Positions 1 through 14,554 are shown, numbered from the stretch's first letter. The stretch: DNA of 64,000 nucleotides from Bacilli bacterium (GCA_045597865.1 JAZLKX010000001.1:32001-96000); one strand, 5' to 3'. Translations and numbers: made by a program. The notes: a model not told the origin generated them from the letters alone.

Positions 1-2
1 CA

Positions 3-224
3 ATTAATTCTTACAATTCTAAAGTCGATTCAAAGAATAGAATCACTTTAAGAAAAGCACGTTTTGATTACTATAACGTGCAAGAATTTGAAGATGGCAA
101 GATTGTTTTGGAACCAAGAGTATTAGTTCCGCCTTTTGAAGTTTCAAAGAGAACATTAAAGATGATGGACAAATCTGTAAACAATGTTAAGAAAAACAAA
201 GTTTCAGATCCTATCAAATTTTAA
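3..224 (+). CDS. Partial (5'-truncated) AbrB/MazE-like antitoxin
   Basis: Open frame INSYNSKVDSKNRITLRKARFDYYNVQEFEDGKIVLEP...; KVDSKNRITL and DGKIVLEP resemble an AbrB fold; its TAA (222-224) overlaps the ATG of the next gene. Confidence 0.65.
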   Translation: MNSYNSKVDSKNRITLRKARFDYYNVQEFEDGKIVLEPRVLVPPFEVSKRTLKMMDKSVNNVKKNKVSDPIKF

Positions 225-592
225 TGCAATTTGAAATAAGACTTGGAGTTCCGGAAATGCTGGCATTCTGGAACGATTTATCTTCTAAAGTAGATAAAGG
301 ATTAGCAAATAAGAATGAAGTGCTTCTGCACAGTAAGCTAGTTAAAGTATTTAAGTTCTTACAAGCTAATCCAAGACATCCGTCTCTTGATTCTCATGAA
401 ATTTCACAATTAACTTCTAGATATGGAATAAAAGTATTTGAATCATATTTAGAAAACCATACTCCAGCAGCCGGTAGAATCTTCTGGGTATATGGTCCGA
501 TCAAGAACTCTATTACAGTTATTGCAATTGAACCTCACCCAAATGACAAGTCAAATGGCTACAGCAAAATAAAATTGTCATCAACAAATTAG
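224..592 (+). CDS. RelE/ParE-like toxin, probable type II TA partner
   Basis: 122 aa; NPRHPSLDSHEI...FESYLE...AGRIFW...VIAIEPHP pattern; translationally coupled to the upstream ORF. Confidence 0.6.
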   Translation: MQFEIRLGVPEMLAFWNDLSSKVDKGLANKNEVLLHSKLVKVFKFLQANPRHPSLDSHEISQLTSRYGIKVFESYLENHTPAAGRIFWVYGPIKNSITVIAIEPHPNDKSNGYSKIKLSSTN

Positions 593-595
593 AAT

Positions 596-631
596 GAAAA
601 GCTCACAAAATCATGTGGGCTTTTCATTTTT
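596..631 (+). terminator. Intrinsic terminator
   Basis: GAAAAGCTCAC-N8-GTGGGCTTTTC followed by a T-rich tract, directly after the toxin stop. Confidence 0.65.
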
Positions 632-681
632 AACGACAAATAGTGACACAATTGTAAATTAATATTGTAATAATATGACAT

Positions 682-2025
682 TTGGCGTATTATTTAGGCA
701 TGAATAAATTAGAAAAAACACGTAAAGAACTTGGTTTAAACCAAAAACAATGCGCTGATCACTTAGGCGTATCATTAAGAACATATCAAAGATATGAACT
801 TGATAATTATTTGGAAAGTGGACAAATAGATGACATTGTCGCTAAAATTAGCAATATTTGTCATAGTTTGTCATATAAACACTTTGAAAATAATGGAAAG
901 CTCAAACTTTTGATAATTGTAGGCACAAGACCAGAAATCATTCGTCTTGCAGCAGTCATAAATAAATGTAGAGAATACTTTGATACTCTTCTTGCACATA
1001 CAGGTCAAAACTATGATTACAATCTCAATGGTGTCTTTTTCAAAGACCTCAAGATAAAAGATCCAGATATATATTTAAATGCTGTTGGAAAAGACCTTGG
1101 TGAAACAATGGGCAACATCATTGCAAAATCATATGAATTAATGGTGGAGATTAAACCAGATGCAGTACTAGTACTTGGAGACACTAATTCATGTCTTTCA
1201 GTAATAGGAGCAAAACGTCTTCATATTCCAATCTTCCATATGGAAGCCGGTAATAGATGTAAAGATGAATGTCTCCCAGAAGAAACAAATAGAAGAATTG
1301 TTGATATCATCTCTGATGTTAACTTAGCGTACTCTGAACACGCTAGAAGATATTTAGCAGACTCAGGTCTTCCTAAAGAAAGAACATATGTCACTGGATC
1401 ACCAATGGCAGAAGTCCTCCATCAAAACATTAATGAGATTGAATCCAGTGACATATTGAATAAACTTTCCCTTAAAAAGGGTAAGTATATCCTTCTTTCT
1501 GCACACCGTGAGGAAAACATTGATACAGAGAAGAACTTCAATAGCTTGTTCTCTGCTATTAATAAGATGGCAGAGATATACGATATGCCAATCTTGTATT
1601 CATGCCATCCAAGATCAAGAAAAAGACTTGAAGCTACAGGATTCAAACTTGATCCAAGAGTAGTGATGCATGAACCTTTAGGTTTCCATGACTACAACAA
1701 CCTTCAAATGAATGCTTTCTGTGTTGTATCTGACTCTGGTACTTTACCAGAGGAATCAAGTTTCTATGCTTCTATTGGTAAACCAATCGCAGCAGTCTGT
1801 ATTCGTACATCTACAGAAAGACCAGAAGCATTAGATGATGCATGCTTTGTACTCGCTGGAATAGATGAAAAGAATCTACTCCAAGCAGTGGAAGTTGCAA
1901 TTAATAATAAAGCTGGTTGTCATCCAGTAGATAATTACATTGATACAAATGTATCTGATAAAGTAGTAAAACTAATCCAATCCTATGTTGGAGTAGTAAA
2001 TAAAATGGTTTGGAGAAAGGAATAA
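682..2025 (+). CDS. fnlC: XRE-HTH fused to a non-hydrolysing UDP-HexNAc 2-epimerase of the FnlC/Cap5G/WbjD type (likely start ATG 700)
   Basis: N-terminal RKELGLNQKQCADHLGVSLRTYQRYE (HTH); GTRPEIIRL, HTGQNYD, LGDTNS, HMEAGNR, SDSGTLPEE, STERPEA. Confidence 0.85.
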   Translation: MAYYLGMNKLEKTRKELGLNQKQCADHLGVSLRTYQRYELDNYLESGQIDDIVAKISNICHSLSYKHFENNGKLKLLIIVGTRPEIIRLAAVINKCREYFDTLLAHTGQNYDYNLNGVFFKDLKIKDPDIYLNAVGKDLGETMGNIIAKSYELMVEIKPDAVLVLGDTNSCLSVIGAKRLHIPIFHMEAGNRCKDECLPEETNRRIVDIISDVNLAYSEHARRYLADSGLPKERTYVTGSPMAEVLHQNINEIESSDILNKLSLKKGKYILLSAHREENIDTEKNFNSLFSAINKMAEIYDMPILYSCHPRSRKRLEATGFKLDPRVVMHEPLGFHDYNNLQMNAFCVVSDSGTLPEESSFYASIGKPIAAVCIRTSTERPEALDDACFVLAGIDEKNLLQAVEVAINNKAGCHPVDNYIDTNVSDKVVKLIQSYVGVVNKMVWRKE

Positions 2026-2044
2026 TTCTTCAAACCTTTTCTTT

Positions 2045-2103
2045 CTCTTTTGCATATTCATAAGTGAACGTATTATCTAGTGAACTTTTTTATGTAAAAG
2101 AGC
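2045..2103. repeat. Hairpin element B, copy 1 (others at 5015-5073 and 6981-7040)
   Basis: CTCTTTTGCA...TGTAAAAGAG arms enclosing AGTGAAC-GTA...TA-GTGAACT. Confidence 0.85.
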
Positions 2104-2155
2104 TGCGTTCTATCTAATTGCAAAACACTCTAAAAAAATAAAAGGCCATAATTAA

Positions 2156-2284
2156 ATATTGAAAAATACTGGAAAAACATATTGAAAAATACTGGAAAAT
2201 CCCAAAACTTTGCACTTGAAATTAATAAATAGAGTTGATAAAATATTGAAAAATACTGGAAAAACATATTGAAAAATACTGGAA
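2156..2284. repeat. Four copies of a 23-bp unit ATATTGAAAAATACTGGAAAAAC arranged as two tandem pairs
   Basis: Copies start at 2156, 2179, 2243 and 2266; the second copy of each pair is 3'-truncated. Confidence 0.9.
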
Positions 2285-2340
2285 TTATTTCTTGAATAAA
2301 ACACCGTTTTATAGTATAATATTAACAGGAGCAAGAAACT

Positions 2341-3609
2341 ATGAATTATTATGTAAGATATATTGATCAAATCATTGAACGATATAGAAAGAGCACCGGA
2401 GCAATTGTTGTAGTTGGGCCAAAATTTTGTGGAAAAACAACTTCTTGTAATAATATTGCAAAAAGTATCTATAGAATTAATACAAAAGCAATTGTCGAAA
2501 GAACTACTATTAACCCTAAAATCGCATTAGAAGGTGAAGAACCACACTTAATTGATGAATGGCAAAAAGTTCCAGATATTTGGAATTATATAAAAGAGGA
2601 TTTAGATATCGATTATAAATTCGGTAAATATCTTTTAACAGGATCATCTACACCTGCTGACAAAACTGATATTCAACACAGTGGTGCCGGGAGATTAAAA
2701 ATGGTTAAAATGCGAACTATGTCACTTTTTGAATCAAAAGAATCTCTTGGAATTGTTTCTCTACGATCTCTTTTTGAGAATAAAGAATTTTTTCCTCATC
2801 CAAATCAAGAACAAACATTAGAAAAAACAGCATTTCAAATATGTAGAGGTGGTTGGCCGCTTTCTGTTTTAAGTCAAGAAGAGTCAACTGCGCTTGATGT
2901 TACCAATTCATACTACGATGGTTTATTTCAATTTGCAGATAGCAAAAATGAGAAATTTAGAAACAAAAAAACAGATTACTTCAAAACAATTTTAAAAAGT
3001 TATGCTCGAAATGTTTCGACCTCTGCTTCAATGAATTCTATGATAAATGATGTTAGGCAAAATAATGAACGCATCTTAGATGACTCTACATTTAGAGATT
3101 ATCTTGAAGCATTAAAAGACTTATATATTATTGAAGACTTAGAAGCTTGGTGTCCAAACATAAGATCAAAAACAGCAATTTTATCCTCTCCTACAAGACA
3201 TTTTGTTGATCCATCTATTGCCTGCTCTGTTTTAGGCATCGGACCTAAAAATTTGATGAACGATTTTAATACATTTGGTTTTATGTTTGAAGATTTAGCT
3301 GTTAGGGATTTAAGGATATATAGTGAACTTCTTAATGGAACAATCAAACATTATAAGGATAACGCTGGTTTAGAATGCGATTCAGTTATTCACCTTCAGG
3401 ATGGTAAGTGGGCGGCAGTGGAAATTAAGCTTGGTGGAGAAGAATTAGTAAATTATGGTGCTAAGAAGCTTAATTTGCTTAAAAATAAATTGACCACAAA
3501 AAGTGACACTAATCCTCCGACGTTTATGGCAATCATTACAGCGTTTGGGCCTTGCTATAAAAGGGAAGATGGAATTTATGTTATCCCTTTAAATTGTTTG
3601 AAGGATTAA
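2341..3609 (+). CDS. AAA_14/DUF4143-type ATPase with a C-terminal PD-(D/E)XK-like domain
   Basis: GPKFCGKTT Walker A, LIDEWQ Walker B, LTGS, GGWP, FVDPS, ECD...AAVEIKLG. Confidence 0.85.
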   Translation: MNYYVRYIDQIIERYRKSTGAIVVVGPKFCGKTTSCNNIAKSIYRINTKAIVERTTINPKIALEGEEPHLIDEWQKVPDIWNYIKEDLDIDYKFGKYLLTGSSTPADKTDIQHSGAGRLKMVKMRTMSLFESKESLGIVSLRSLFENKEFFPHPNQEQTLEKTAFQICRGGWPLSVLSQEESTALDVTNSYYDGLFQFADSKNEKFRNKKTDYFKTILKSYARNVSTSASMNSMINDVRQNNERILDDSTFRDYLEALKDLYIIEDLEAWCPNIRSKTAILSSPTRHFVDPSIACSVLGIGPKNLMNDFNTFGFMFEDLAVRDLRIYSELLNGTIKHYKDNAGLECDSVIHLQDGKWAAVEIKLGGEELVNYGAKKLNLLKNKLTTKSDTNPPTFMAIITAFGPCYKREDGIYVIPLNCLKD

Positions 3610-3618
3610 AAAAATACT

Positions 3619-4707
3619 ATGAGTTACAAAAATAGATTTGGCTTTAAGCAATCCGTTGCATTCAAACACATTATTCGTGGATTTGAATATCTTGATAGAA
3701 TTAGAGATTTTCAAATGGATGGCAATATTGTTCATGCAAAGATATATGGTACAAATCCATATGACGTTTGTTTTGCTATTGATTTTATAAATAGAAAAGT
3801 AATGAATGCTAATTGTACTTGCCCATATATGAATGAACATAAAATGTGTAAGCATATTGCAGCGCTTATGCTCTATGTAGATTTACATATAAATGGTGGT
3901 TCAGTAAAAGAACTTTGTGTTTATCATCTCGCAAATTTTATTGTATCAAAATTAAAAGAATTAAATGGAATGCTTCCAATTGTGAAAGAAGATGATTTAA
4001 AAAAACAAATTGTTGGTAAAAACATTAATTTGCAGAGTAACGACTGTAAATACGCAACTGCATATTTTGAATTGCTTGATAAGGTAAGTGAATCTACATA
4101 TAAAGAAGCTCTTGAATTGCTATTTAAAAAACGTGTCGTGACTATCGACAAAGAAAAGACAGTATGGATAGATAAAAGGCTTTCAAAGAATTATTCTGAT
4201 TCATATCATGATTTCTACGCTAAAAATTCTTTACTTAAAGGATATGGCGACTACATTTATGATCCTTTTGAAGATGAAGAATACTATGATGAAGATCAGG
4301 AATATTATTATGCAACTGAAGTTAAAGAAAAATATAAAGGCATTAACTTGGTTTCTCATACTAGCATTTTCAAAAAGGGTAAATATAAAGAAACACTATT
4401 TTATGATTTTCAAACTGATGAGATCTTTTTTGAGGAAGATATCGATAATCATTTTTCAATTGCTCCTATCGATACATTTGATATTTCTAGTAACTTTATA
4501 GAATTCTTCATTTCAAGTGAATATCTTCCTGAAAAAAGAAAAGTGTTATTAGAAAATTATCAAAACGGAACTTTTTCCTTTGAGAATCTTGATAATACCC
4601 AAAAATCACGTTATAGAAAATTAGAAAACAATTACTTTATTGGAAAAGGAATACAATATTGCTTAGAGAATCATTATGATTTCTGCCTACATGATTATTA
4701 TTTCTAA
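3619..4707 (+). CDS. SWIM zinc-finger protein
   Basis: ANCTCPY...KMCKHIAALM (CxC...CxH); acidic C-terminal half. Confidence 0.7.
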   Translation: MSYKNRFGFKQSVAFKHIIRGFEYLDRIRDFQMDGNIVHAKIYGTNPYDVCFAIDFINRKVMNANCTCPYMNEHKMCKHIAALMLYVDLHINGGSVKELCVYHLANFIVSKLKELNGMLPIVKEDDLKKQIVGKNINLQSNDCKYATAYFELLDKVSESTYKEALELLFKKRVVTIDKEKTVWIDKRLSKNYSDSYHDFYAKNSLLKGYGDYIYDPFEDEEYYDEDQEYYYATEVKEKYKGINLVSHTSIFKKGKYKETLFYDFQTDEIFFEEDIDNHFSIAPIDTFDISSNFIEFFISSEYLPEKRKVLLENYQNGTFSFENLDNTQKSRYRKLENNYFIGKGIQYCLENHYDFCLHDYYF

Positions 4708-4716
4708 ATCAATTAG

Positions 4717-4781
4717 AGATAACACCTGATTAAGCATTGAACGTTATTATCAGTAAGTGAAATGCTAAGGTGTTTTCTTTT
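4717..4781. repeat. Hairpin element A, copy 1 (others at 6691-6755, 7842-7881 truncated, 11883-11947)
   Basis: AGATAACACCT..AGCATT-GAAC-N14-GTGA-AATGCT..AGGTGTTTTCT. Confidence 0.9.
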
Positions 4782-4785
4782 GTTG

Positions 4786-5073
4786 CAGAAAGACCAGAAG
4801 CATTAGATGATGTATGCTTCGTACTCGCTGGAATAGATGAAAAGAATCTACTCCAAGCAGTGGAAGTCGCAATTAATAATAAAGCTGGTTGTCATCCAGT
4901 AGATAATTATATTGATACTAATGTATCTGATAAAGTAGTAAAACTAATCCAATCCTATGTTGGAGTAGTAAATAAAATGGTTTGGAGAAAAGAGTAACTC
5001 CAAACCTTTTCTTTCTCTTTTGCATATTCTTAAGTGAACGTACTTAAGTAGTGAACTACATTTGCAAAAGAGC
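4786..5073 (+). repeat. Direct-repeat copy of the epimerase 3' end plus element B (copy of 1814-2103)
   Basis: 4786-4997 is colinear with 1814-2025, 7 substitutions counted by eye. Confidence 0.95.
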
Positions 5074-5074
5074 G

Positions 5075-5158
5075 GATTTTATTTGGTCCTACTACAAAGG
5101 ATTTCTTGGTAGTTGAATTTTCAAGTTCCTTTTCATTTAGAATGCCTAAAACGTGCAT
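5075..5158 (-). pseudogene. RhuM-like gene remnant
   Basis: Minus strand reads MHVLGILNEKELENSTTKKSFVVG, similar to the HIKNIY/HIQNIF...KE segment of the neighbouring RhuM-like proteins. Confidence 0.45.
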
Positions 5159-5160
5159 GC

Positions 5161-5958
5161 TTATTTAATTATCTTTAATAAATCTGATAAAGTAATGCTT
5201 TCAAGGCGAGTTGCAATCGCTAATGAATTTCCTATATCTTTAAGTGAACAACCTATGTGGTAGCCAACCCCATCTGCAAAAATAAATCGATCATGAAATG
5301 CTTTTGTCTTTTTTACATCATAAATAGCATTGCTTTCAATTGGGTTGTTTGGGTCTGTAATAATTGTAGTAGAAACATTAATTTCTTTTAAAACACCATC
5401 AAATGAATGATCAAAATAATCATCAATAATGTAAATAGATTGTTTAGCAGTTTCTAAGAACTTTTTAATTGATAAGTAGCCTTCTAATTGTTCGCCTTTA
5501 CAAAATGTTAGTTCGTGCAGTTGTTTTTCTCTAATCTCGTATATTTGATTTTGCAAGTGATTAATTTTATCTCTGCATTCAAGGCATGTTGCTTCGTTTA
5601 TTGAATAACCTTCAATAGAATATCCTTCAAGTATTTTTTCTGCCCAGTTTCTAAAAGATTTTGCTATGTCACTTTTTATAACCCAACCCAAATAAATTAA
5701 TACTTTCAAATTATAATAGGCGACTTCATACTCTTTACCATCGTTTCCAGTTGTAAACCAAAAGTTGACAACTTGATTTTTATTTAATTCTTCTGAGGCA
5801 AATAATTTATTTATATGCTTAGATATATTTTGTTTTGTTGTTTGAAAAATCGTTGCTAATTGTTGTTGGTTTAACCATACAGTTCTATTAGCTAAATGAA
5901 CATCAAGCTTAAGTTCACCAGTTTCATAAATAATAATATTTTGTTCTAAGTTGTTCAT
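5161..5958 (-). CDS. RhuM-like DNA-binding protein with a C-terminal HDRF (PLD-like) domain
   Basis: Likely start MNNLEQ at 5958 (GGAAG upstream); TVWLNQQQLATIF, YYNL; C-terminal IYIIDDY...FHDRFIFADG...HIGCSLKDIG. Confidence 0.7.
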   Translation of the reverse strand: MNNLEQNIIIYETGELKLDVHLANRTVWLNQQQLATIFQTTKQNISKHINKLFASEELNKNQVVNFWFTTGNDGKEYEVAYYNLKVLIYLGWVIKSDIAKSFRNWAEKILEGYSIEGYSINEATCLECRDKINHLQNQIYEIREKQLHELTFCKGEQLEGYLSIKKFLETAKQSIYIIDDYFDHSFDGVLKEINVSTTIITDPNNPIESNAIYDVKKTKAFHDRFIFADGVGYHIGCSLKDIGNSLAIATRLESITLSDLLKIIK

Positions 5959-6193
5959 AAAATCTTCCTTGCCCATTAATCTGAACAGCATTTTTTGCCG
6001 ATGAGATAATTTCGTTTTGTTCTTTTTCGGCATATATGTTTTTGATGTGTTTTCCAATAACACTTGGATCACGATCAAAAAGTTTGCCCATTTCTTCAAG
6101 AGTTAACCAAACAGTATCTTCCGTTGGAGAAACATTAACTGGTAATGAGAAGTCACCATCTTTAAATGTTAATATTTCAAATTTTTGTTCCAT
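5924..6193 (-). pseudogene. Truncated RhuM-like N-terminal domain
   Basis: AGGAG RBS; DTVWLTLEEMGKLFDRDPSVIGKHIKNIY, then a stop at 89 aa. Confidence 0.6.
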
Positions 6194-6354
6194 TTAATAT
6201 CTCCTTTATACTGAAAATAAATAAAATCAAATAATGCTGTGTTTGCATTTTTAACAATTATAATATGCAGTAAATGTAAAATCAACATAATTAATAATTA
6301 TTTTATTTATTTTCTGCATAATGATATGATAGTAAAGGAAGAGGGAATAATGAT

Positions 6355-6687
6355 ATGGACAAGATAGAGGAAGAAATAGCAGGTAGAATAAAAGAAATGA
6401 TGGATAAACGTAAGGTGAACCAAAGCGAACTTGCTCGTGAGCTTGGAGTTCACCAATATGACATTTCACGTATGTTAAATGGCAAACCATTTCCATCCAT
6501 TTCTCAACTAACCATGATAGCGAACTATCTAGATTGTTCTTTGTATTATCTAATTGGAATACAAGAAGAATCGTATCGTGAGCTATCACCAGAAACTAGA
6601 AAGATTGCAGATGCATATCAATCTGCTAATGAAACAATCAAAGCAGTAGTGGATCTAGTACTCACAAATAAACAAATAACTAAATAA
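6355..6687 (+). CDS. XRE-family HTH regulator (copy 1)
   Basis: VNQSELARELGVHQYDISRMLNG...PSISQL; near-identical to 11546-11878. Confidence 0.85.
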   Translation: MDKIEEEIAGRIKEMMDKRKVNQSELARELGVHQYDISRMLNGKPFPSISQLTMIANYLDCSLYYLIGIQEESYRELSPETRKIADAYQSANETIKAVVDLVLTNKQITK

Positions 6688-6690
6688 TAA

Positions 6691-6755
6691 AGATAACACC
6701 TGATTATGCATTGAACGTAATAATTTATAAGTGAAATGCTAAGGTGTTTTCTTTT
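6691..6755. repeat. Hairpin element A, copy 2
   Basis: Aligns with 4717-4781. Confidence 0.9.
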
Positions 6756-6762
6756 AATATTG

Positions 6763-7040
6763 GAAGCATTAGTTGATGCATGCTTCGCACTCGCTGGAAT
6801 AGACGAAAAGAATCTACTCCAAGCAGTGGAAGTCGCAATCAATAATAAAGCTGGTTGTCATCCAGTAGATAATTACATTGATACTAATGTATCTGATAAA
6901 ATAGTAAAACTAATCCAATCTTATGTTGGAGTAGTAAATAAAATGGTTTGGAGAAAAGAATAACTCCAAACCTTTTCCTTCTCTTTTGCATATTCTTAAG
7001 TGAACGTACTTTTAGTAGTGAACTTCATTTGCAAAAGAGC
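6763..7040 (+). repeat. Third copy of the epimerase 3' end plus element B (copy of 1825-2103)
   Basis: 6763-6963 is colinear with 1825-2025, 10 substitutions counted by eye. Confidence 0.95.
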
Positions 7041-7046
7041 ACGTTT

Positions 7047-7460
7047 TTAGCAATCGTTGTTAATTATCTCAAGCATTTGAGCAGGAGTGACTACAAAATC
7101 TCTCTCAGGAAAATGTTTGATATTTCCGGTTACTAAATAAGTGTCATCAACTAATCTTGAAGACATAACAATTTTAAAGAATTTTGCATCATCTTCATGA
7201 ATGAATTTTTCTTGTATTTCAACTGGATCCATTTCTCTTCCAAAATCTTCAATTAGTGAAAGAGTCATTTTTATTTTTGCTGGTGAAAAACCAAATTTGT
7301 TTCGAATTAGTACTTCTTCATATTCTGCTATTATTTCTTTATTAAAGACAGGTATTATTTTTTCTTCAACTACTAAATCAAGAATTTGCCAAGGTATCGA
7401 TCCTTCCTTTAATAAAGCAGACACAATAACGTTTGTGTCAATAACAGCATAATAATTCAT
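7047..7460 (-). CDS. PIN-domain toxin (VapC-like)
   Basis: AVIDTNVIVSAL, EYEEVL, DDAKF, LVTGNIKHFP. Confidence 0.9.
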   Translation of the reverse strand: MNYYAVIDTNVIVSALLKEGSIPWQILDLVVEEKIIPVFNKEIIAEYEEVLIRNKFGFSPAKIKMTLSLIEDFGREMDPVEIQEKFIHEDDAKFFKIVMSSRLVDDTYLVTGNIKHFPERDFVVTPAQMLEIINNDC

Positions 7461-7475
7461 ATGAAACTCCTTGCG

Positions 7476-7760
7476 CTATTTTTTAGCGTTTCTAGTTTCG
7501 GTGATTATCTCATTAATTTCTTCAAGAGTAATTTCGCTGTTTCCGTTTGCTTTTGAAATATCATTCATTTCTTTGATCGCTGCACGTAATTCAGCTTTCT
7601 TTTGTTCGTTTCTTAATTCAAATGGCATTCCATTAACTGCCACACTTTTTTTAAGAAACATTCTAACGGCAGTGGATAAGTCTATCCCTAGTGAGTTAAA
7701 AATTTCTGTTGCTTGATTTTTGAGATCTTCATCGATCCTAATCTGTAACATTGTCCCCAT
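7476..7760 (-). CDS. RelB/DinJ-family antitoxin
   Basis: MLQIRIDEDLKNQATEIFNSLGIDLSTAVRMFLKKSV...GMPFEL; start placed at ATG 7760 rather than 7823. Confidence 0.85.
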   Translation of the reverse strand: MGTMLQIRIDEDLKNQATEIFNSLGIDLSTAVRMFLKKSVAVNGMPFELRNEQKKAELRAAIKEMNDISKANGNSEITLEEINEIITETRNAKK

Positions 7761-7841
7761 AATATTTCCTATCCATCTTCCTTCTTGTAATAATAGTGTA
7801 ATGACAATGTCGTAATTTGTCAATACTTAAATTAATAAAAT

Positions 7842-7881
7842 GATAATACCTGATTAAGCATTGAGCGTAATAATCTATAAG
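7842..7881. repeat. Hairpin element A, copy 3 (right arm missing)
   Basis: GATAATACCTGATTAAGCATTGAGCGTAATAATCTATAAG, then diverges. Confidence 0.8.
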
Positions 7882-7977
7882 CCATTAAATATTTTTTTGG
7901 CTCTCTTGTATAACTAATTAGTCTAGAATTTGCCAGTACTCTTGTAAATTGATGTCTAAAATGTATAATAATACATT

Positions 7978-10221
7978 ATGATAGATTTTTCCAATATCGA
8001 TGATTACGAATTTGAGCAACTATGTGCTGAAATTTTATCAAAAATTTTAAAGACTCAATTTAGGACATTTGCAAAAGGACCAGATAAGGGAATAGACATT
8101 AGAAAAACTAACGGTGACGATAAAATCATTGGCCAAGCAAAAAACGTTAGGAGTGTCAGTGGTGTTTTTGCTAGTGAACTTAATAAAATTAAAAAAACCG
8201 GCTGTAAAAAATATTATTTATTTATCGGATGTGCTCTAAGCGCAGACCACACAACTAAAATATTTAATGAATTTAAAGATTATATGGATGATGAATCTTT
8301 TATTTTTGATGCTAATACATTAGATAAATTATTATCTACTAGTGAATATAAAGAAATACTTTCTAATCACTTTAAGCTATGGGCGGTTAACAAACAGGCA
8401 ATTGAATTATTAAAATCTAATGATATTTCTATTGATACTGATACATTGAAAAGTAGAATCCAAAAACACAGTTGTTTTTATGTCGACACAAGAGATTACA
8501 AAAACGCTTTACTAGAACTACTAAGTAATAGAATCATATTACTTGAAGGAAATGCTGGAGTTGGAAAATCTACCATATCCGAAATGATTGTGCTTTCTCT
8601 TATGTCAAAATTTGATAAATATAACGTTATTTATTCTTCAAGTTCAGATGTTGATAAGGTCAAAAATGCATTAAGCATGGATCCGGAAATCACAAATATT
8701 ATTTATATTGATGATTTTTTAGGCTCTTTTTATTCTAATTTGACTTTAGGAGGAACGAATTCAATTTGTTCTCTGGTTAATTTTGTATTAAGCCATTGCA
8801 ATAATTTTCTTATATTAAATACAAGAGGAGTTATTTTAAAAGAAGCTAATAGAAAATATATTGATTTTGAAAAGACAATAAATTCGCTAAAAATTAAAAA
8901 GGTAAAAATAGATAATATTTCTAAATTTGATAAAGCAAGAATACTATTTAATCACATAGTTTCTTCTGATTTAACGGATAAAGTTAAAAACGAAATAGTT
9001 ACCAAGAAATTTTATAATCAAATAATAAATCATAAAAACTATAATCCAAGGTCTATTGAATATATTTGTAGTAATAAAAATTTTGAAAATTCTGGCTTTT
9101 TGAATTACACGGATTTCTCAATTAATGCCTTAGACAATCAAGAAAAAACTTGGGAACATGCATATTTGAATAATTTAAGTGATGTTGATAGAGTGTTTTT
9201 GCTGGTTTTATATTCGTTAACTTTTGAAACTGAATCTATAAGCCTATCTATTTTAGAAAAGGCTTTTAATAACGAAATTAAAAATGGATATTCTATTGAT
9301 ACGACAGTAGATAATTTTGAAATTTCTTACAAACGTTTGCTTGAATCATTCATAACAAAAATCATCATTGGCGATGATAATTATATTGCGTTTGCCAATC
9401 CATCTGTTAAGGAATGTATTTCTAAACATGAATTTATAAACAAAAATTCTTTTATCTATGGGGATCAATACTTCGCAAAAAAAGATTTCCTTAAATCTAA
9501 GGAATTCGAAAAATTAATTGAGGATGGAACATTTAGTAAACTTGATTATGTTCGAATGGATTATAGTCTTGTTTTAGCTTTGTATTTAATTGAGAATTCT
9601 CATAACGATCCAAAATATAACACTTTTTTATTAAGCGCCCTTAACAGAGATTATTCAAAAAACAATTCAATTTATGCCGGTCATAGAAATTCTGATATTT
9701 TTAGGGCTCTTTTTTACTTACCTATATTTGATAATTTGGATTTTAATCAAATTGATAATAAGTTTCTTGATTCTTTCGTTCTTTCTTGTATTAAGTTTAT
9801 CGACGACAGATATATTGAGGATATATTTGATAAAATTGAAGATATTAGTTCTCTATTAAACGATAACGATGATGTAAAATCTGAGATAATTAATTTAGTT
9901 GAAGATAGTGTTTATGTTGATGACATAATCGAACGCAACATTGAATATTTTGATGACGAAACTGAATTTAATGAAGATGCTGCTAATGACGAACTGGTTG
10001 ATGCAATAGATGATGAATTAAATCAAAATAATTTATATAGTTTATTACGTAATTCTTATGATTTTGAAATAGATAGCAACGATATTGATAATTTTAAAAA
10101 TACCGATGTATATGATGAGTACAGATTTAGAACTAATGATTGGGTGTCTAGCAGCCACACAGTTATTGATGATAATAATGATGATAAAGAATATGAAACA
10201 ATGTTTTTATCATTAGTGTAA
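7978..10221 (+). CDS. Restriction-endonuclease-like N-terminus plus STAND-type NTPase, acidic C-terminus (probable defence protein)
   Basis: FEQLCAEIL...GPDKGIDIR...IIGQAK; GNAGVGKST; IYIDDFLG; ILNTR; YNPRSIE. Confidence 0.7.
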   Translation: MIDFSNIDDYEFEQLCAEILSKILKTQFRTFAKGPDKGIDIRKTNGDDKIIGQAKNVRSVSGVFASELNKIKKTGCKKYYLFIGCALSADHTTKIFNEFKDYMDDESFIFDANTLDKLLSTSEYKEILSNHFKLWAVNKQAIELLKSNDISIDTDTLKSRIQKHSCFYVDTRDYKNALLELLSNRIILLEGNAGVGKSTISEMIVLSLMSKFDKYNVIYSSSSDVDKVKNALSMDPEITNIIYIDDFLGSFYSNLTLGGTNSICSLVNFVLSHCNNFLILNTRGVILKEANRKYIDFEKTINSLKIKKVKIDNISKFDKARILFNHIVSSDLTDKVKNEIVTKKFYNQIINHKNYNPRSIEYICSNKNFENSGFLNYTDFSINALDNQEKTWEHAYLNNLSDVDRVFLLVLYSLTFETESISLSILEKAFNNEIKNGYSIDTTVDNFEISYKRLLESFITKIIIGDDNYIAFANPSVKECISKHEFINKNSFIYGDQYFAKKDFLKSKEFEKLIEDGTFSKLDYVRMDYSLVLALYLIENSHNDPKYNTFLLSALNRDYSKNNSIYAGHRNSDIFRALFYLPIFDNLDFNQIDNKFLDSFVLSCIKFIDDRYIEDIFDKIEDISSLLNDNDDVKSEIINLVEDSVYVDDIIERNIEYFDDETEFNEDAANDELVDAIDDELNQNNLYSLLRNSYDFEIDSNDIDNFKNTDVYDEYRFRTNDWVSSSHTVIDDNNDDKEYETMFLSLV

Positions 10222-10283
10222 GCAAAATTTATTCGTTAAATAACTGACACTAGAATGATTGATGTTAAGTTATATTGTAAATA

Positions 10284-10571
10284 ATATTGTTCTATGCTAA
10301 AGAAGATTGCTTACCTATTATTAAAAAGAGATAGAAAGATATTAAAGCAATTTAAGTATTAAGTGACTATTTAACAATATGTCATATATGTGTAGTCTAT
10401 AAAATAATATGGCTTCACTTTTAATGTTCTTCAATAATATAAACCAAGTGTATGTAATAACTGAGTTCTAATTAAAGTAAGAGATCAGCAAATATCTTTT
10501 GCTAATCTTTTACCAATCTCTTTTCTTGATAGAGAAGCGTAAGCAAGTTCTCGTATAGCAAGAAAAGCCGG
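10284..10571. repeat. Non-coding direct repeat X, copy 1 (copy 2 at 11950-12236)
   Basis: About 288 bp, near-identical to copy 2; ends in hairpin CTTTTCTTG...CAAGAAAAG followed by CCGG. Confidence 0.95.
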
Positions 10572-10583
10572 TTCAGGGTAATG

Positions 10584-11384
10584 TTATTTAATCAACTTTA
10601 ATAAGTCTGATAAAGTAATGCTTTCAAGGCGAGTTGCAATCGCTAATGAGTTTCCTATATCTTTAAGTGAACAACCTAGGTGGTAGCCAACTCCATCTAC
10701 AAAAATAAATCGATCATGAAATGCTTTGGTCTTTTTTACATCAAAAATTTCGTTACTTTCAATTGGGTTGTTTGGGTCTGTAATAATTGTAGTAGAAACA
10801 TTAATTTCTTTTAAAACATCATCAAATGAATGATCAAAGTAGTCATCAATAATGTAGATAGATTGTTTTGCTGTTTCTAAAAACTTTTTAATTGATAAGT
10901 ATCCTTCAAATTGCTCTCCTTTTTGAAAGCTTATTTCGTGATTCTTTTTTGCTTCAATTTCGTTGATCCTTCTAGTATTTTCTTGGACCATTTGAATAGT
11001 TTGTAATAATGGGGCGCACTCATCACATTTACAAGGTGGGGCATATTTGTTTGCTAATCCAGAATTAATTACTTCTATTGCCCATTTTCTAAATTCAATT
11101 GCAATGATACTGTTAATTTTGAACCCTATCGACATAATCATTTCTTTATTATAATACTTTGTATTATATGATTTGCCATCTTTTGCAGTATGTCGGAAAA
11201 AACGACAAACTGATTTCTCGTCTTGTTCTTTTGTGGAAAATATGTTTTGAATATGCTCTGTTACATTTGAATGAGAACTACCAAATAGATGCTCAATATC
11301 CTTTTGACAAAGCCAAACATTTCCTTCTTCTAGTTTTGCTTCAACACCGAATGCATTTTTTATGATTATGTCATAGTTTCCCAT
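10584..11384 (-). CDS. RhuM-like protein with a C-terminal HDRF (PLD-like) domain
   Basis: VWLCQKDIEHLF, YNTKYYN, FRKWA; C-terminal ~115 aa nearly identical to 5161-5958. Confidence 0.75.
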   Translation of the reverse strand: MGNYDIIIKNAFGVEAKLEEGNVWLCQKDIEHLFGSSHSNVTEHIQNIFSTKEQDEKSVCRFFRHTAKDGKSYNTKYYNKEMIMSIGFKINSIIAIEFRKWAIEVINSGLANKYAPPCKCDECAPLLQTIQMVQENTRRINEIEAKKNHEISFQKGEQFEGYLSIKKFLETAKQSIYIIDDYFDHSFDDVLKEINVSTTIITDPNNPIESNEIFDVKKTKAFHDRFIFVDGVGYHLGCSLKDIGNSLAIATRLESITLSDLLKLIK

Positions 11385-11545
11385 CTCTTGTCTCCTTTAT
11401 GCTGAAAATAAATAAAATCAAATAATGCTGTGCTTGCATTTTTAACAATTATAATATGCATTAAATGTAAAATCAACATAATTAATAATTATTTTATTTA
11501 TTTTCTGCATAATGCTATGATAGTAATGGAAGAGGGAACAAGGAT

Positions 11546-11878
11546 ATGGATAAGATAGAGGAAGAAATAGCAGGTAGAATAAAAGAAATGATGGATAAAC
11601 GTAAGGTGAACCAAAGCGAACTTGCAAGTGAGCTTGGAGTTCACCAATATGACATTTCACGTATGTTAAATGGCAAACCATTTCCATCTATTTCTCAACT
11701 CAATATGATAGCGAACTATTTAGATTGTTCTATGTATTACTTAATTGGAATACAAAAAGAATCATATCGTGAGCTATCACCAGAAACTAGAAAGATCGCA
11801 GATGCATATCAGTCCGCTAATGAAACAATCAAAGCAGTAGTGGATCTAGTACTCACCAATAAACAAATTAATAAATAA
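11546..11878 (+). CDS. XRE-family HTH regulator (copy 2)
   Basis: Near-identical to 6355-6687. Confidence 0.85.
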   Translation: MDKIEEEIAGRIKEMMDKRKVNQSELASELGVHQYDISRMLNGKPFPSISQLNMIANYLDCSMYYLIGIQKESYRELSPETRKIADAYQSANETIKAVVDLVLTNKQINK

Positions 11879-11882
11879 TAAA

Positions 11883-11947
11883 AGATAACACCTGACAAAG
11901 CATTGAACGTAATAATCTATAAGTGAAATGCTCAGGTGTTTTCTTTT
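11883..11947. repeat. Hairpin element A, copy 4
   Basis: AACACCTG/CAGGTGTT outer stem is perfect in this copy. Confidence 0.9.
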
Positions 11948-11949
11948 GT

Positions 11950-12236
11950 ATATTGTCCTATACTAAAGAAGATTGCTTACCTATTATTAAAAGAGATAGA
12001 AAGATATTAAAGCAATTTAAGTATTAAGTGACTATTTAACAATATGTCATATATGTGAAGTCCATAAAATAATATGGCTTCACTTTTAATGTTCTTCAAT
12101 AATATAAACAAAGTGTATGTAATAACTGAGTTCTAATTAAAGTAAGAGATCAGCAAATATGTTTTGCTAATCTTTTACCAGTCTCTTTTCTTGATAGAGA
12201 AGCGTAAGCAAGTTCTCGTATAACAAGAAAAGCCGG
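11950..12236. repeat. Non-coding direct repeat X, copy 2
   Basis: Aligns with 10284-10571; forms the 3' flank of the minus-strand gene ending at 12276. Confidence 0.95.
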
Positions 12237-12275
12237 CCATATAGCCCCACGCAATTAAAGATGTATAGAATAATT

Positions 12276-13553
12276 CTAGTCTTGTTTCTGGAATGGTGAA
12301 GTATAAAGGAATGGTGTAGCTAATAAGAAGTATACATTTATTCCAAGAAGTAAAACTTCACTAAATATACCTATTAATATAATTAAAGAAATAAATAGAA
12401 GGGAGAAAAATAAATGTTCCCCTTTTCTTTTTATTACTTTGTAAATAACAAATGCTATAAAGCCTAAATATAAAGCAAATTTAATAATTCCACCCACAGC
12501 ATAGTTTTTTACATAGATGATATTGCCAGATGAACTATAAGGTAGAATAAGGCTTTGAACTCTTTCTCCGGCTCCAAACATAATACCTAATGGATAATTA
12601 ACTGACTGCATTAAATTTGATGAAGTTGCAAATCTGTCTTTAGTAATGGTGATGCCATCATTAATAAGACTGGTTTTGATATATGAACCTAAAGTTGCAA
12701 ATGGACCAAATGACATTGCAGGAACAAAGATAAGAAGATTTAAAATAAGTAAAATTGCAAAGCCTGCAAATAATGTAATCTCCCATTTCTTTTCATTTCC
12801 TTTGAGGTTATGAATGAGGTGGTGGATAAGTAGTGAAATTAAGATAATAACAATTGCAGTTAATGCAAGCCTGTTTTTGCTTAAGAATGCATTTACTAAG
12901 AAGAAAGCAGGGAATGCATATAACCAATATTTTTTTGTATTTAATCCAAGAATTACAGTAGATATTGTAGAAATTAATAAGATAAAACCATATATTTCGC
13001 TGTTGGTAAATATTGATGTAACAGGTGATGCAATCCCATATTCGCCTCTAAGTGACATTCCTATTTCTTTATATTGAAATATGTATGTGTATAGGCATAA
13101 TGCAACAGCAATACCTAGTAGGATGTATGAAATTAAATTTAACTTTTCATGATCGGTGGATTGATATTTAAAGATATAACAAGCAATAAATACAGAAATA
13201 ATATTTGAGAATATCATTCCAACTCCAATTACAGATTGAAGTGTAGGTATTTCAATATCTTTAATAAGTGGTGAAACAAATATAGTAACCATTTGAGTTA
13301 CCATATAAATAAGACATGGAATTAAAATCTTCTTGTTTGGCAACTTTCTATAACAAGCTAACCCAACTAAGAAAAGTAAAGCAAGAAGCCCAAAGATAAT
13401 TCCTCTATAAATGGTTCCAGCATTAGTAGATGCATCTAGTTTAAATGTAGATACATACGGCAAAAGAGCTAGTAAACCAAAACCAAATAGAAAATAGATT
13501 AAGTTTTTACATATAAATGAGATTAATTTTTGTTGCAAAATCTTTATATTCAT
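12276..13553 (-). CDS. Multi-pass membrane protein, O-antigen ligase/polymerase-like
   Basis: About 11-12 hydrophobic segments; SIFTNSEIYG, SKNR, TKDRF, MFGAG. Confidence 0.55.
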   Translation of the reverse strand: MNIKILQQKLISFICKNLIYFLFGFGLLALLPYVSTFKLDASTNAGTIYRGIIFGLLALLFLVGLACYRKLPNKKILIPCLIYMVTQMVTIFVSPLIKDIEIPTLQSVIGVGMIFSNIISVFIACYIFKYQSTDHEKLNLISYILLGIAVALCLYTYIFQYKEIGMSLRGEYGIASPVTSIFTNSEIYGFILLISTISTVILGLNTKKYWLYAFPAFFLVNAFLSKNRLALTAIVIILISLLIHHLIHNLKGNEKKWEITLFAGFAILLILNLLIFVPAMSFGPFATLGSYIKTSLINDGITITKDRFATSSNLMQSVNYPLGIMFGAGERVQSLILPYSSSGNIIYVKNYAVGGIIKFALYLGFIAFVIYKVIKRKGEHLFFSLLFISLIILIGIFSEVLLLGINVYFLLATPFLYTSPFQKQD

Positions 13554-13595
13554 ATCTTTTTCTATATTATTTTAAATTGCATCATCGATGAAGGC

Positions 13596-14465: not shown

Positions 14466-14554
14466 AGTGTGTTGTTATTATAATACTTAAATGTGCAAAA
14501 ATAAACATTATTAAAATGCCTTTTTCAATAACTTATATTTAAATATAATTGATA

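Follow-up and report, generated by a model that had tools for sequence, protein, structure and literature searches.

The window analysed here is a 64,000-nucleotide stretch of DNA of an uncultured gut Bacilli bacterium, from a metagenome bin (G000) of 58 contigs with 5.4% contamination. It carries a gene for a capG-like UDP-GlcNAc 2-epimerase with an N-terminal extension of the XRE-type HTH, and an array of five cargo units of defence and toxin-antitoxin genes begins immediately 3' of the stop codon of this gene (Table 1). The units measure 0.8-2.7 kb, contain no remnants of transfer or integration genes, and are bounded by three copies of the capG end each followed by a hairpin B, by hairpin A in three complete copies and a truncated one, and by two preX blocks each followed by a hairpin X. 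The succession of these parts is as the initial annotation had listed it. The same annotation placed the array at the edge of a capsule locus, whereas it sits inside one, preceded by capE/capF-like genes and followed by glycosyltransferases, LicD and an ABC exporter; a DDE_Tnp_1 transposase is found just outside the array, at 14602-15921. Elsewhere in the genus, capG is in most species immediately followed by the next biosynthetic gene. The array is inserted right after the stop codon and terminator of the capG-like epimerase gene and splits the polysaccharide operon.

Table 1. Coordinates of the anchor gene, cargo units and boundary elements of the array, counted from the first nucleotide of the window.
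Feature	Position	Strand	Support or remark
capG-like non-hydrolysing UDP-GlcNAc 2-epimerase	682..2025	+	Pfam Epimerase_2 8.6e-81; NCBIfam wecB 231 bits, over cut-off
Repeat copy 1: resident capG 3' end (last ~70 codons, ~210 coding bases) and hairpin B1 (2044-2100)	1814..2103	+	
Terminator-like stem spanning the stop codon of capG (GGTTTGGAG...CAAACC) and T tract TTTTCTTTCT	2007..2046	+	terminator scan
Cargo 1: AAA_14/DUF4143 ATPase (2341-3609) and SWIM zinc-finger protein (3619-4707)	2341..4707	+	Pfam; PADLOC PDC-S01 1.8e-53, PDC-S62 2.9e-09
Hairpin A1	4713..4781	+	5 nt past SWIM stop codon; covariance model R1 84.8 bits
Repeat copy 2: capG 3' end, reading frame intact, and hairpin B2 (5014-5070)	4786..5073	+	B model R2, 90.7 bits
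Cargo 2: RhuM-family gene (5161-6099, minus) and XRE repressor (6355-6687, plus)	5161..6687	-/+	Pfam; PADLOC PDC-S05 9.8e-52
Hairpin A2	6687..6755	+	overlaps XRE stop codon; R1 89.3 bits
Repeat copy 3: capG 3' end and hairpin B3 (6980-7037)	6763..7040	+	
Cargo 3: PIN toxin (7047-7460) and RelB antitoxin (7476-7823)	7047..7823	-	Pfam PIN_3 2.8e-15, RelB 1.2e-13
A3, truncated to the 5' half of hairpin A, with the break in the loop following ...TATAAG	7837..7881	+	R1 23.6 bits
Cargo 4: Mrr-type nuclease domain fused to nSTAND3 NTPase	7978..10221	+	Pfam; PADLOC PDC-S73 4.1e-84
preX block with terminator-like hairpin at its end, then hairpin X1 (10517-10567)	10284..10571	+	present in G017 too
Cargo 5: second RhuM (10584-11384, minus) and XRE (11546-11878, plus)	10584..11878	-/+	PADLOC PDC-S05 (RhuM)
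Hairpin A4	11879..11947	+	begins on base after XRE stop codon; R1 88.8 bits
Second preX block and hairpin X2 (12182-12232)	11950..12236	+	last recognisable array junction

Hairpin A, 66 nt in length, is built of outer arms AAAGA-T-AACACCT and AGGTGTT-T-TCTTT around a loop of 20-23 nt that is conserved in sequence, and its 3' end is a T tract. A one-sided bulge of 2-9 variable nucleotides in the 5' arm is kept in all 11 full copies compared, which is not expected of a plain terminator. A 33-nt pattern of the element gave four matches versus none in 100 shuffles. Folded as DNA, A1, A2 and A4 reach -8.9, -10.3 and -15.3 kcal/mol (z -1.7, -3.8 and -5.5), while B1, B2 and B3 reach -7.1, -12.0 and -9.4 kcal/mol (z -1.65, -3.4 and -2.1); the folds of A and B are real but modest. 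No compensatory change was seen in the 20 pairs of the A fold because the copies are too alike. Nine cassette ends carry a full A, namely three in G000 (where both XRE-A ends are related copies) and six in the genome G030 described below; measured from the last stop codon on the plus strand, A starts at -4 to +7 nt in eight of them and at +45 in the ninth. The genes that end there are unrelated (SWIM, XRE, HepT, AbiEii, a cation-efflux protein and an unknown 264-aa protein). Whatever the strand of the cargo, the sites are oriented as the anchor gene (11/11 full A and 21/21 aligned B/X/Y sites). Successive A sites are 1.0-2.2 kb apart in G030; in G000, A1 and A2 are separated by 2.0 kb, and A2 and A4 by 5.2 kb with the truncated A3 between them.

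Hairpins B and X belong to a wider family, B/X/Y, of the form TCTCTTTT...AAAAG. They have no T tract on either strand, and every B, X or Y is preceded by a terminator-like hairpin with a T tract. The left border of the cargo lies at a varying distance from B/X (13, 88 and ~265 nt before RhuM). The related hairpin Y occurs in a second array of G000, on contig C18, together with the 3' end of another gene; no A is present there. A strict scan of 1.74 Mb for B/X-type hairpins returned six matches, four in the array studied here and two in the C18 array, and no A, B or X was found elsewhere in G000, these elements being confined to the array. The 1.5 kb behind capG were inspected at 30 capG loci of the genus, by reading the sequence and scanning it for hairpin motifs; B was missing from 27, and no integrase-bearing partner element came to notice in this reading. 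Against Rfam, A, B and X had no match at E<=1 (positions 1-16000 of the window, L008 and L009).

The direct repeats were delimited by gapped blastn, which matched the lengths proposed in the initial annotation (290/288, 278 and 288/287 bp): 1814-2103 and 4786-5073 are 93.5% identical over 291 columns, 1825-2103 and 6763-7040 are 91.5% identical over 281 columns, and the two preX+X blocks (10284-10571 and 11950-12236) 96.9% over 288 columns, while the longer segments comprising A, the capG copy and B (4704-5073 and 6680-7040) share 90.6% over 371 columns. As also proposed, the repeats begin near an A and end at the base of B or X, more precisely 3-8 nt 3' of an A and either at the 3' foot of B (5073, 7040) or 4 nt beyond X (12236). 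The left ends of the capG copies lie ~10 nt apart (1814 vs 1825), and those of the copies in the C18 array differ too; a single fixed crossover would not produce such variable ends, which counts against a site-specific reading. G000 and the genome G017 carry three capG 3'-end copies each. Among six copies, 13 of the 17 variable columns are synonymous versus a synonymous-site fraction of 0.217 (rough binomial P 2e-6), and this mostly synonymous divergence indicates that the copies derive from working genes.

So far, arrays of this type have been found in three or four species, all within a single uncultured Bacilli genus, and all the genomes compared are metagenome bins. G017 has the order capG-B-cargo 1-A-copy-B-cargo 2-A-copy-B, with 95.6% identity to G000 over 6.4 kb. 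The homology breaks exactly at the 3' foot of B3 (7040), resumes at preX, and after X stops 3 nt beyond the stem; cargo 3, the PIN+RelB pair, is missing at this position in G017. In G030, assembled in 10 contigs, a 17.7-kb array within a 171-kb contig displays six full A sites behind capG that abut B (one), X (four) or cargo at once (one), followed by three B-only junctions and then by polysaccharide genes again. One of its cassettes (cassette 0) is inserted between capG ACCTTTT and CTTTT-B, with a 4-nt T-tract overlap. The RhuM+XRE pair of cargo 2 recurs in G030 (83% identity) within a different hairpin context. RhuM+XRE+A cargo is found in three contexts, following B, following X after preX, and, in G030, following X. 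A further genome, G008, carries other cargo behind the same T tract AAACCTTTTTCTTTT, and the C-terminal 140 residues of its CapG are 100% identical at the protein level. The initial annotation described the array as built on the 3' end of a polysaccharide gene, which holds for the G000/G017 lineage only: the A-bounded cassettes of G030 come after the stop codon of capG and lack any copy of the gene end, so the gene-end repeat is an accessory of some cassettes and not the basis of the system.

Additional combinations were found in Logan contigs from four gut-metagenome runs (X1, X5, X6 and X7) aligned at 88% likeness. In these, the capG end is joined to hairpin X (2040->10518 in run X1, 6976->10518 in run X7), A is joined to B with no capG copy (11947->5031) or followed by the start of X (loose end at 6756), five distinct continuations extend past 7040, and distinct contigs ending before 12184 number 10 in run X1 and four in run X5. 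Since De Bruijn contigs break at any repeat, part of this diversity of loose ends is expected without mobility. The comparison of relatives called for by the initial annotation revealed gain, loss and re-use of cargo exactly at the predicted junctions. The circles that it anticipated were not encountered, no circle junction being seen in the Logan contigs; two joints that go back along the array (12238->10281 and 7040->5044) each depend on one contig, matched over 31-32 nt at low stringency. The anatomy of the array, the conservation of this anatomy, the positions of the junctions and the variation between genomes are direct observations, and the array is a genuine cassette-type array of defence and toxin-antitoxin genes with unit boundaries at the hairpins, as first suggested.

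No recombinase is encoded within 1814-12236, in agreement with the initial annotation. Likewise, no integrase gene was found in the G030 array or either of its flanks, nor in G000 from capG to the downstream polysaccharide genes. Genome-wide searches of G000, G017 and G030 for IntI (TIGR02249), a tyrosine recombinase with an extra domain near patch III, gave at best 78 bits versus a cut-off of 265, with matches split around model positions 180-240, the place of the IntI-specific insert. Classification among IS200/IS605-type or REP/RAYT hairpin elements was rejected, with no Y1 HUH transposase (PF01797) in the three genomes and hairpins confined to the array rather than dispersed. Serine recombinases are encoded in G000 only, G017 and G030 having none, and the tyrosine recombinases common to all three genomes are Xer-like only. 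A 301-aa Xer-like enzyme common to G017 and G030 and missing from the G000 assembly looks like a local invertase. The dif-like site recognised by the Xer machinery is 28 bp long with a CATAA-N6-TTATG core; a loose generic version of this pattern occurs at 45 places in G000, none within A, B or X, and the candidate dif of G000 is located away from the array hairpins. The search tied no tyrosine or serine recombinase and no Y1 HUH enzyme to the A/B/X sites. Of the trans-acting cassette-accretion system postulated at the outset, the cassette array stands, while the trans-acting enzyme stays putative.

On balance, we lean towards an integron-like, site-specific cassette-accretion locus with non-canonical sites, served in trans by a putative recombinase. 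Each unit consists of a one- or two-gene cargo closed on the capG-distal side by A and opened on the capG-proximal side by a B/X hairpin. Cassettes may move as circles via site-specific recombination at a conserved junction, the crossover presumably falling in a core of about TTTT|CTTT common to the 3' end of A and to the T tract before B/X, including the T tract after the capG terminator stem. The recombinase would be supplied from outside the array, and new units would enter next to capG, much as integron cassettes enter at attI. Two cassettes of the G000/G017 lineage further hold the last ~70 codons of capG together with B, segments that probably stem from functional capG genes in other strains, through capture or exchange. 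As these copies now form direct repeats of 280-290 bp, RecA-type recombination could also delete, duplicate or re-insert units.

Such recombination might also act on its own. According to this alternative, which we consider unlikely, A, B/X and the capG-end and preX blocks are portable homology patches at which circles or transformed DNA bearing such a patch are integrated Campbell-style by RecA, units being lost by recombination between repeats, with no dedicated recombinase, the hairpins being travelling terminators or insulators. The failure to find a recombinase, the sufficient length of the repeats for RecA, their variable left borders, a synonymous-biased divergence that fits exchange with working capG alleles, and the terminator-like hairpin and T tract before every B/X/Y all agree with it. 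However, it leaves unexplained why the same 66-nt A lies only a few bases from the stop codons of at least six unrelated genes, why A abuts X in G030 without long homology, why all sites share a single orientation and why the G030 insertion occurred at a 4-nt T-tract overlap.

An ordinary defence island, in which A, B and X act on RNA as terminators, insulators or processing sites and the repeats are a few segmental duplications with no cassette mobility, appears distinctly improbable. Differing cargo at the same junctions in G000, G008, G017 and G030, the same cargo in different junction contexts, and B/X hairpins devoid of a T tract are hard to reconcile with it, and the elements are missing from the rest of the genome (and B from most capG loci of the genus) though terminators are needed everywhere. 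In its favour, A follows stop codons and terminates in a T tract, the folding z-scores are modest, covariation is absent, and defence genes form islands anyway.

The relic of a canonical integron (CALIN, an attC cluster devoid of an integrase), with A as a diverged attC and IntI lost or carried by an unassembled or foreign element, is less probable still. The R boxes of attC follow the consensus RYYYAAC/GTTRRRY, whereas those of A read AGATAAC/GTTTTCT; the would-be unpaired central spacer is paired (ACCT/AGGT), the loop of A is conserved in sequence, A invariably comes paired with a second hairpin (B/X) absent from integrons, the C18 array has no A at all, and no IntI is encoded in G000, G017 or G030. 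What recalls an integron is the AAC...GTT triplet pair at the inner end of the outer stem of A, together with co-oriented ORF-plus-site cassettes spaced 1-2 kb apart. The TA/defence cargo resembles that of sedentary chromosomal integrons (10.1101/2024.07.02.601686; PMC13108822), and CALIN have been reported in Firmicutes, where complete integrons are nevertheless nearly unknown (PMC4889954; PMC9024848).

Finally, a chimeric assembly, in which alternative alleles of different strains downstream of capG were joined via their common repeats, is scarcely credible: G000 is indeed a contaminated, fragmented metagenome bin and the runs contain many related strains, but the A-to-capG-copy junctions (4781-4786 and 6755-6763) are unique sequence that an assembly graph cannot invent, the three G000 copies differ mutually, the separate genome G017 has the same first two units in the same order over 6.4 kb, and G030 has a longer array within a single contig.

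A bolder proposal, which we put forward tentatively and with the odds somewhat against it, is that A, B/X and Y are the sites of an undescribed Gram-positive cassette-capture system. It would be a functional integron analogue working with a different recombinase, either of the Xer family or a foreign one provided in trans; its junction would pair two hairpins downstream of an anchor gene's terminator, and it could take up the 3' end of that gene. If true, such a system would stock anti-phage and toxin-antitoxin genes inside surface-polysaccharide loci.

Several known systems share parts of this organization. In staphylococci, SCC and pseudo-SCC elements stack in tandem at the 3' end of rlmH (orfX) with or without a recombinase, those devoid of ccr using Ccr in trans. 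The array likewise stacks behind one conserved gene, and in G000/G017 a gene-end repeat bounds some of its units, as one bounds each SCC element; SCC, however, rely on large serine recombinases, which G017 and G030 do not encode, and on 15-20-bp repeats without hairpins. The pdif modules of Acinetobacter plasmids, and other Xer-dependent elements, are small cargo units, often of TA or resistance genes, moved by the host Xer in trans. The array resembles them in its small site-bounded modules and in the Xer-like nature of all shared tyrosine recombinases, but A, B and X have no 28-bp dif-like site by the loose pattern used. Cis-mobilizable elements (CIMEs) of the ICESt1/ICESt3 type, which sit at the 3' end of fda, are described in PMC5704250 as integrase-less, bounded by direct repeats, arranged in tandem and thought to be moved in trans. 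The G000/G017 units are similarly integrase-less, tandem and bounded by direct repeats holding a gene end; unlike CIMEs, which are decayed ICEs/IMEs of many kb with short att repeats, the units here combine a small size with 280-290-bp repeats and a common hairpin grammar, and G030 has no gene-end repeat.

With respect to integrons, the attC model relies on R-UCS-L boxes, extrahelical bases, a VTS of 20-100 nt and a conserved AAC/GTT, as given in PMC4889954. Inspected by eye, A has AAC/GTT, a loop of 20-23 nt and the one-sided bulge in 11/11 copies, and deviates in its R boxes and paired central spacer. The array also differs from integrons and CALIN by its sequence-conserved loop, the lack of IntI in three genomes, a second hairpin (B/X/Y) normally present at each junction, some units with a 210-bp neighbour-gene end, and its host, a Bacilli lineage of small genome size with almost no known integrons (PMC4889954; PMC9024848). 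Conversely, it shares with them the cassette layout of an ORF directly followed by a site, on one strand and within 4 kb (except for the A2-A4 spacing in G000), the co-oriented 1-2-kb units ending in an imperfect hairpin whose stem bears AAC/GTT and which has extra bases on one side, the high similarity of the sites within one array, the apparent addition of new units beside a fixed proximal site, a cargo rich in toxin-antitoxin and anti-phage genes and, as in CALIN, an organization that needs no recombinase within the array.

The array was recovered by ORF and family scans in the order of parts that the initial annotation had given, and sequence comparison returned both sets of repeats that it had claimed, namely the end of the capG anchor gene with hairpin B and the block ending in the related hairpin X. 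Hairpin A, the 66-nt element closing a cargo unit on the capG-distal side, is present in the window as three full copies and one 5′ half. Against PADLOC, four cargo families gave matches to candidate defence families (PDC-S01, S62, S05 and S73). The source genome (G000) is a metagenome-derived bin of 1.74 Mb in 58 contigs, and the window is G000:C1:32001-96000. The placement of the array at the edge of a capsule locus had to be revised: polysaccharide genes lie on both sides of it (capE-like and capF-like upstream; LicD, glycosyltransferases and an ABC exporter downstream), and the array is therefore inside the locus.

Features of the array and of related loci. G, genomes (G000, source); C, contigs; L, extracted stretches; positions without a handle are those of the window.
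Feature	Position	Remarks	Basis
capG-like UDP-GlcNAc 2-epimerase	682-2025	anchor	ORF and family scans
Cargo, in order after capG		AAA_14/DUF4143 ATPase + SWIM; RhuM + XRE; PIN + RelB; Mrr-nSTAND3 fusion; second RhuM + XRE	ORF and family scans
capG terminator-like stem	2007-2036
capG 3′ end + hairpin B, three occurrences	1814-2103, 4786-5073, 6763-7040	91-93% identity with the resident copy	sequence comparison
288-bp block ending in hairpin X, two occurrences	10284-10571, 11950-12236	96.9% identity	sequence comparison
72-bp direct repeats	2126-2284
22-nt inverted repeats	6206-6321, 11397-11512
Genes directly past the last X	12276-15921	all minus strand
N-terminal XRE-type extensions	682-960; L010 12771-12960; L009 97-330 and 3367-3640
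Two large genes between capF and capG	L010 16264-19875 (G000:C1:28264-31875)
G030 A-unit cargo		MNT-HepT; unknown 264-aa protein; AbiEi/AbiEii; RhuM + XRE; cation-efflux protein; desulfoferrodoxin + 2-hydroxyacid dehydrogenase
Desulfoferrodoxin + 2-hydroxyacid dehydrogenase pair	G030 L009 11562-13189; G000 L010 10766-12269	66-68% identical
IS110-family transposase fragment	G017 L008 4299-4913	minus strand
301-aa Xer-like gene	L047 400-1302 (G017:C34); L048 7970-8872 (G030:C6); L049 9309-10220 (G003:C43)
Second array	G000:C18:57425-62309 (L050 7425-12310)
301-bp direct repeats of G003	L049 2830-3130 and 15439-15739	97% identical

An XRE-type helix-turn-helix of about 70 residues extends the N terminus of the capG-like and the capE-like enzyme alike, and the capG open frame spans 443-469 aa in seven genomes (G000, G008, G017, G030, G016, G028 and G021), 411 aa in G024 and 373-398 aa in most others. 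The two large genes between capF and capG, one of 686 aa weakly matching AAA_16 and one of 510 aa matching no family, are found in G000 and G017 and could likewise have been inserted into the operon; the same gap in G030 measures only 840 bp. Just upstream of the AAA_14/DUF4143 gene, the two 72-bp repeats are 85% identical, each with ATATTGAAAAATACTGGAAAAACATATTGAAAAATACTGGAA, operator- or iteron-like in look and present in a related form in G017. In both RhuM-XRE copies, the divergent intergenic region holds the 22-nt inverted repeats, which are 91-95% complementary, lie 72 nt apart and are probably the XRE operator. Past the last X come three genes that may be further cargo: one of 425 aa matching no family, one of 289 aa whose kinase-like matches are weak, and one for a DDE_Tnp_1 transposase.

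That cargo boundaries fall at the hairpins was borne out by three relatives of the genus CAG-826 (G017, G030 and G008), which differ from the source genome at those junctions. Collinearity between G000 and G017 runs to the final base of the third B stem (7040) and resumes at the X-ended block, the intervening sequence holding PIN-RelB, an A remnant and Mrr-STAND in the former and a 1186-aa protein in the latter; past X, their homology stops 3 nt beyond the stem. G030 has six full A sites behind the same capG, spaced 1.0-2.2 kb from one another, and its first cassette lies between capG ACCTTTT and CTTTT-B. A directly abuts the next hairpin there, B once and X four times, and the RhuM + XRE cargo is 83% identical to that of the window. 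Beyond the A units, the G030 array continues with three B-only junctions (cargo AriAB-like, AbiH and AAA_21/RloB) and ends where polysaccharide genes resume. In G008, the C-terminal 140 residues of capG are 100% identical in protein, and the same T tract leads into cargo of a further kind, after which the contig ends.

Two side observations concern these relatives. The desulfoferrodoxin and dehydrogenase genes form an A/X-bounded cassette in G030 and are ordinary genes upstream of capE in G000; the cassette may be a paralogue, or a chromosomal operon that was captured. About 300 bp past hairpin X, G017 carries a 204-aa fragment of an IS110-family (DEDD_Tnp_IS110) transposase, a family whose members often target palindromic sites, attC included.

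The junctions follow a regular geometry. At eight of the nine cassette ends of G000 and G030, A starts between -4 and +7 nt counted from the stop codon that closes the last plus-strand gene (+45 at the ninth), and the genes ahead of A at these ends are unrelated. The 11 A sites and the 21 aligned B/X/Y hairpins are without exception oriented like the anchor gene, Y being a further member of the B/X family. The T tract of the capG terminator, TTTTCTTTCT, is common to the 3′ end of A (GTGTTTTCTTTT). Since capG and the X-ended block both end in a terminator-like hairpin, the junction grammar reads as such a hairpin with its T tract, followed by a B or X hairpin. Behind capG, B is missing from the other 26 of the 30 capG loci that were read across the genus, most of which run from capG directly into the next biosynthetic gene; B is thus a component of the system and not a native terminator.

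The six capG copies (three each in G000 and G017) show 17 variable columns; 13 of them are synonymous, against a synonymous share of only 21.7% among all sites (rough binomial P 2e-6). The reading frame is preserved in every copy; the three of G017 encode one identical peptide, and four replacements are confined to copies 2 and 3 of G000. This synonymous excess, together with the kept frames, shows that the copies did not decay in place following local duplication. Functional capG alleles were their source or their partners in exchange, and import of a unit along with the donor's gene end would fit this pattern. On balance, we lean towards a locus that accretes units site-specifically in the manner of an integron and is served in trans, with homologous recombination between the long repeats as an added or alternative route. 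Such recombination as the sole mechanism, which could draw on the gene-end and X-ended repeats, we consider unlikely. An assembly chimera, one of the conditions under which the initial annotation was to be abandoned, is very unlikely given that a separate genome, G017, has the same order (capG-B-cargo1-A-copy-B-cargo2-A-copy-B, 95.6% identity over 6.4 kb), that each A-to-copy junction is a unique sequence and that the three capG copies differ among themselves. The array is real and supported across genomes; in a whole-genome scan of G000, A, B, X and the X-ended block had no further occurrence outside it.

Logan contigs from four gut or faecal metagenome runs of four studies were compared with the window at 88% likeness, window parts with little cover (e.g. 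8011-10146) being left out of the interpretation. The capG end was joined to X in two runs (2040 to 10518 in run X1; 6976 to 10518 in run X7), and other contigs joined A to B without a capG copy or had A followed by the first bases of X. Past 7040, the contigs continued in five different ways, and 10 (run X1) and four (run X5) different contigs stopped just before X. As these contigs come from mixed strains and break at any repeat, we take them only as evidence of junction combinations beyond those of the three genomes. Two backward joints in run X1 (12238 to 10281 and 7040 to 5044) were rejected as circle junctions, each resting on 31-32 nt of a single contig at 88% likeness.

A strict B/X scan of the whole source genome (TCTYTTT, 8-bp perfect stem, CGTA in the loop) gave six matches, four in the window array and two on contig C18. 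There, the repeat consists of the final ~35 codons of a NUMOD1/I-HmuI-like gene (133 aa), the terminator of that gene and hairpin Y (TCTCTTTTCAA...CCGTAGGTTGAAAAG), in three copies ~2 kb apart, the contig stopping inside the third; DUF3990 + HTH and HipA lie between the copies, and A is not present in this array. One further Y unit occurs in G017, 750 bp downstream of an Xer-like recombinase gene. Taken together, the C18 and capG arrays indicate that an anchor-gene end, terminator and hairpin repeated between TA/defence cargo is a design used at least twice. Contig C43 of G003 holds another island bounded by gene-end repeats: its 301-bp repeats, each an ORF 3′ end, flank 12.6 kb with the 301-aa Xer-like recombinase, ThsA-Macro, TIR, DUF4365 and AAA_14, with AAA_21 just outside the first repeat.

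The known range of the system is narrow, with A sites in three of 37 genus genomes and G008 as a probable further case. Model R1, a covariance model of A, gave full-length matches only in G000 (3), G017 (2) and G030 (6) of these 37, and partial ones of 32-42 nt and at most 31 bits in G016, G028 and G036. Model R2, built on hairpin B, matched only G000 in 151 genomes of the order, a set holding neither G017 nor G030, and none of the other 150. Scanning named GTDB records for A returned five stretches, three of them in two Bacilli bacterium MAG records; the single matches in Anaerolineales and Verrucomicrobiales records, like one in a JGI metagenome, were not confirmed by model R1. IMG/VR gave 0 matches to A, and phage and plasmid collections none to the A-X junction.

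The proposed search for recombinases or HUH enzymes yielded one weak candidate. Neither an integron integrase, a Y1 HUH transposase nor Rep_trans was found in G000, G017 or G030, among which serine recombinases occur only in G000; two Xer-type recombinases are present in every genome of the genus. A 315-aa tyrosine recombinase on contig C57 of G000 was discarded, being common to neither G017 nor G030. A third, 301-aa Xer-like tyrosine recombinase occurs in three of the 37 genus genomes, G017 and G030 (94% identity) and G003 (71%), and was not found in G000 or the other 33. The gene and ~320 bp downstream share 94% DNA identity between G017 and G030, whose capG genes share only ~80%. In G003 and G030, it adjoins 44-bp inverted repeats (holding AGGAATTATG, and including a ribosome-binding site and ATG) around a 2.5-kb defence-island segment with pentapeptide and ATP-grasp genes. 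The arrangement looks like a phase-variable switch and the enzyme like a local invertase, which makes it only a weak candidate.

This compact array, supported across genomes in a small-genome gut Bacilli lineage, displays the behaviour of a cassette platform with other sites and without IntI. Should it be mobile, the stockpiling of defence genes in cassettes would have evolved more than once, and there would be a new pair of recombination site and enzyme to look for; if only homologous recombination is at work, the locus is still a clear case of defence-gene exchange at a hotspot fixed within a capsule locus. The origin of integron cassettes has yet to be settled, and cassettes with a recognisable, selection-shaped piece of a neighbouring gene offer a rare view of DNA pick-up.

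The array hairpins have no Rfam match and no dispersed copies in G000; a dif-pattern scan found no dif-like site in the array, which rejects a reading of A as one. Our full-text literature search found no description of hairpin-bounded arrays of this type in Bacilli, though an earlier one may be in print. Pseudo-SCC elements resemble the present array in gene-end repeats and, probably, in trans-dependence, but each unit here is a cassette with a single function and holds no decayed mobility genes, and gene-end repeats are missing from the G030 form. The same differences separate the array from CIME accretion as portrayed in sections of PMC5704250, with which it has gene-end repeats and inferred trans-dependence in common. 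Integrons are almost unknown in Firmicutes/Bacilli according to passages of PMC4889954 and PMC9024848, and A, compared by eye with the attC features set out there, seems to depart from them in the R-box and the unpaired spacer. In its architecture, the array works as integrons and CALINs do, but an integron integrase is missing from G000, G017 and G030.
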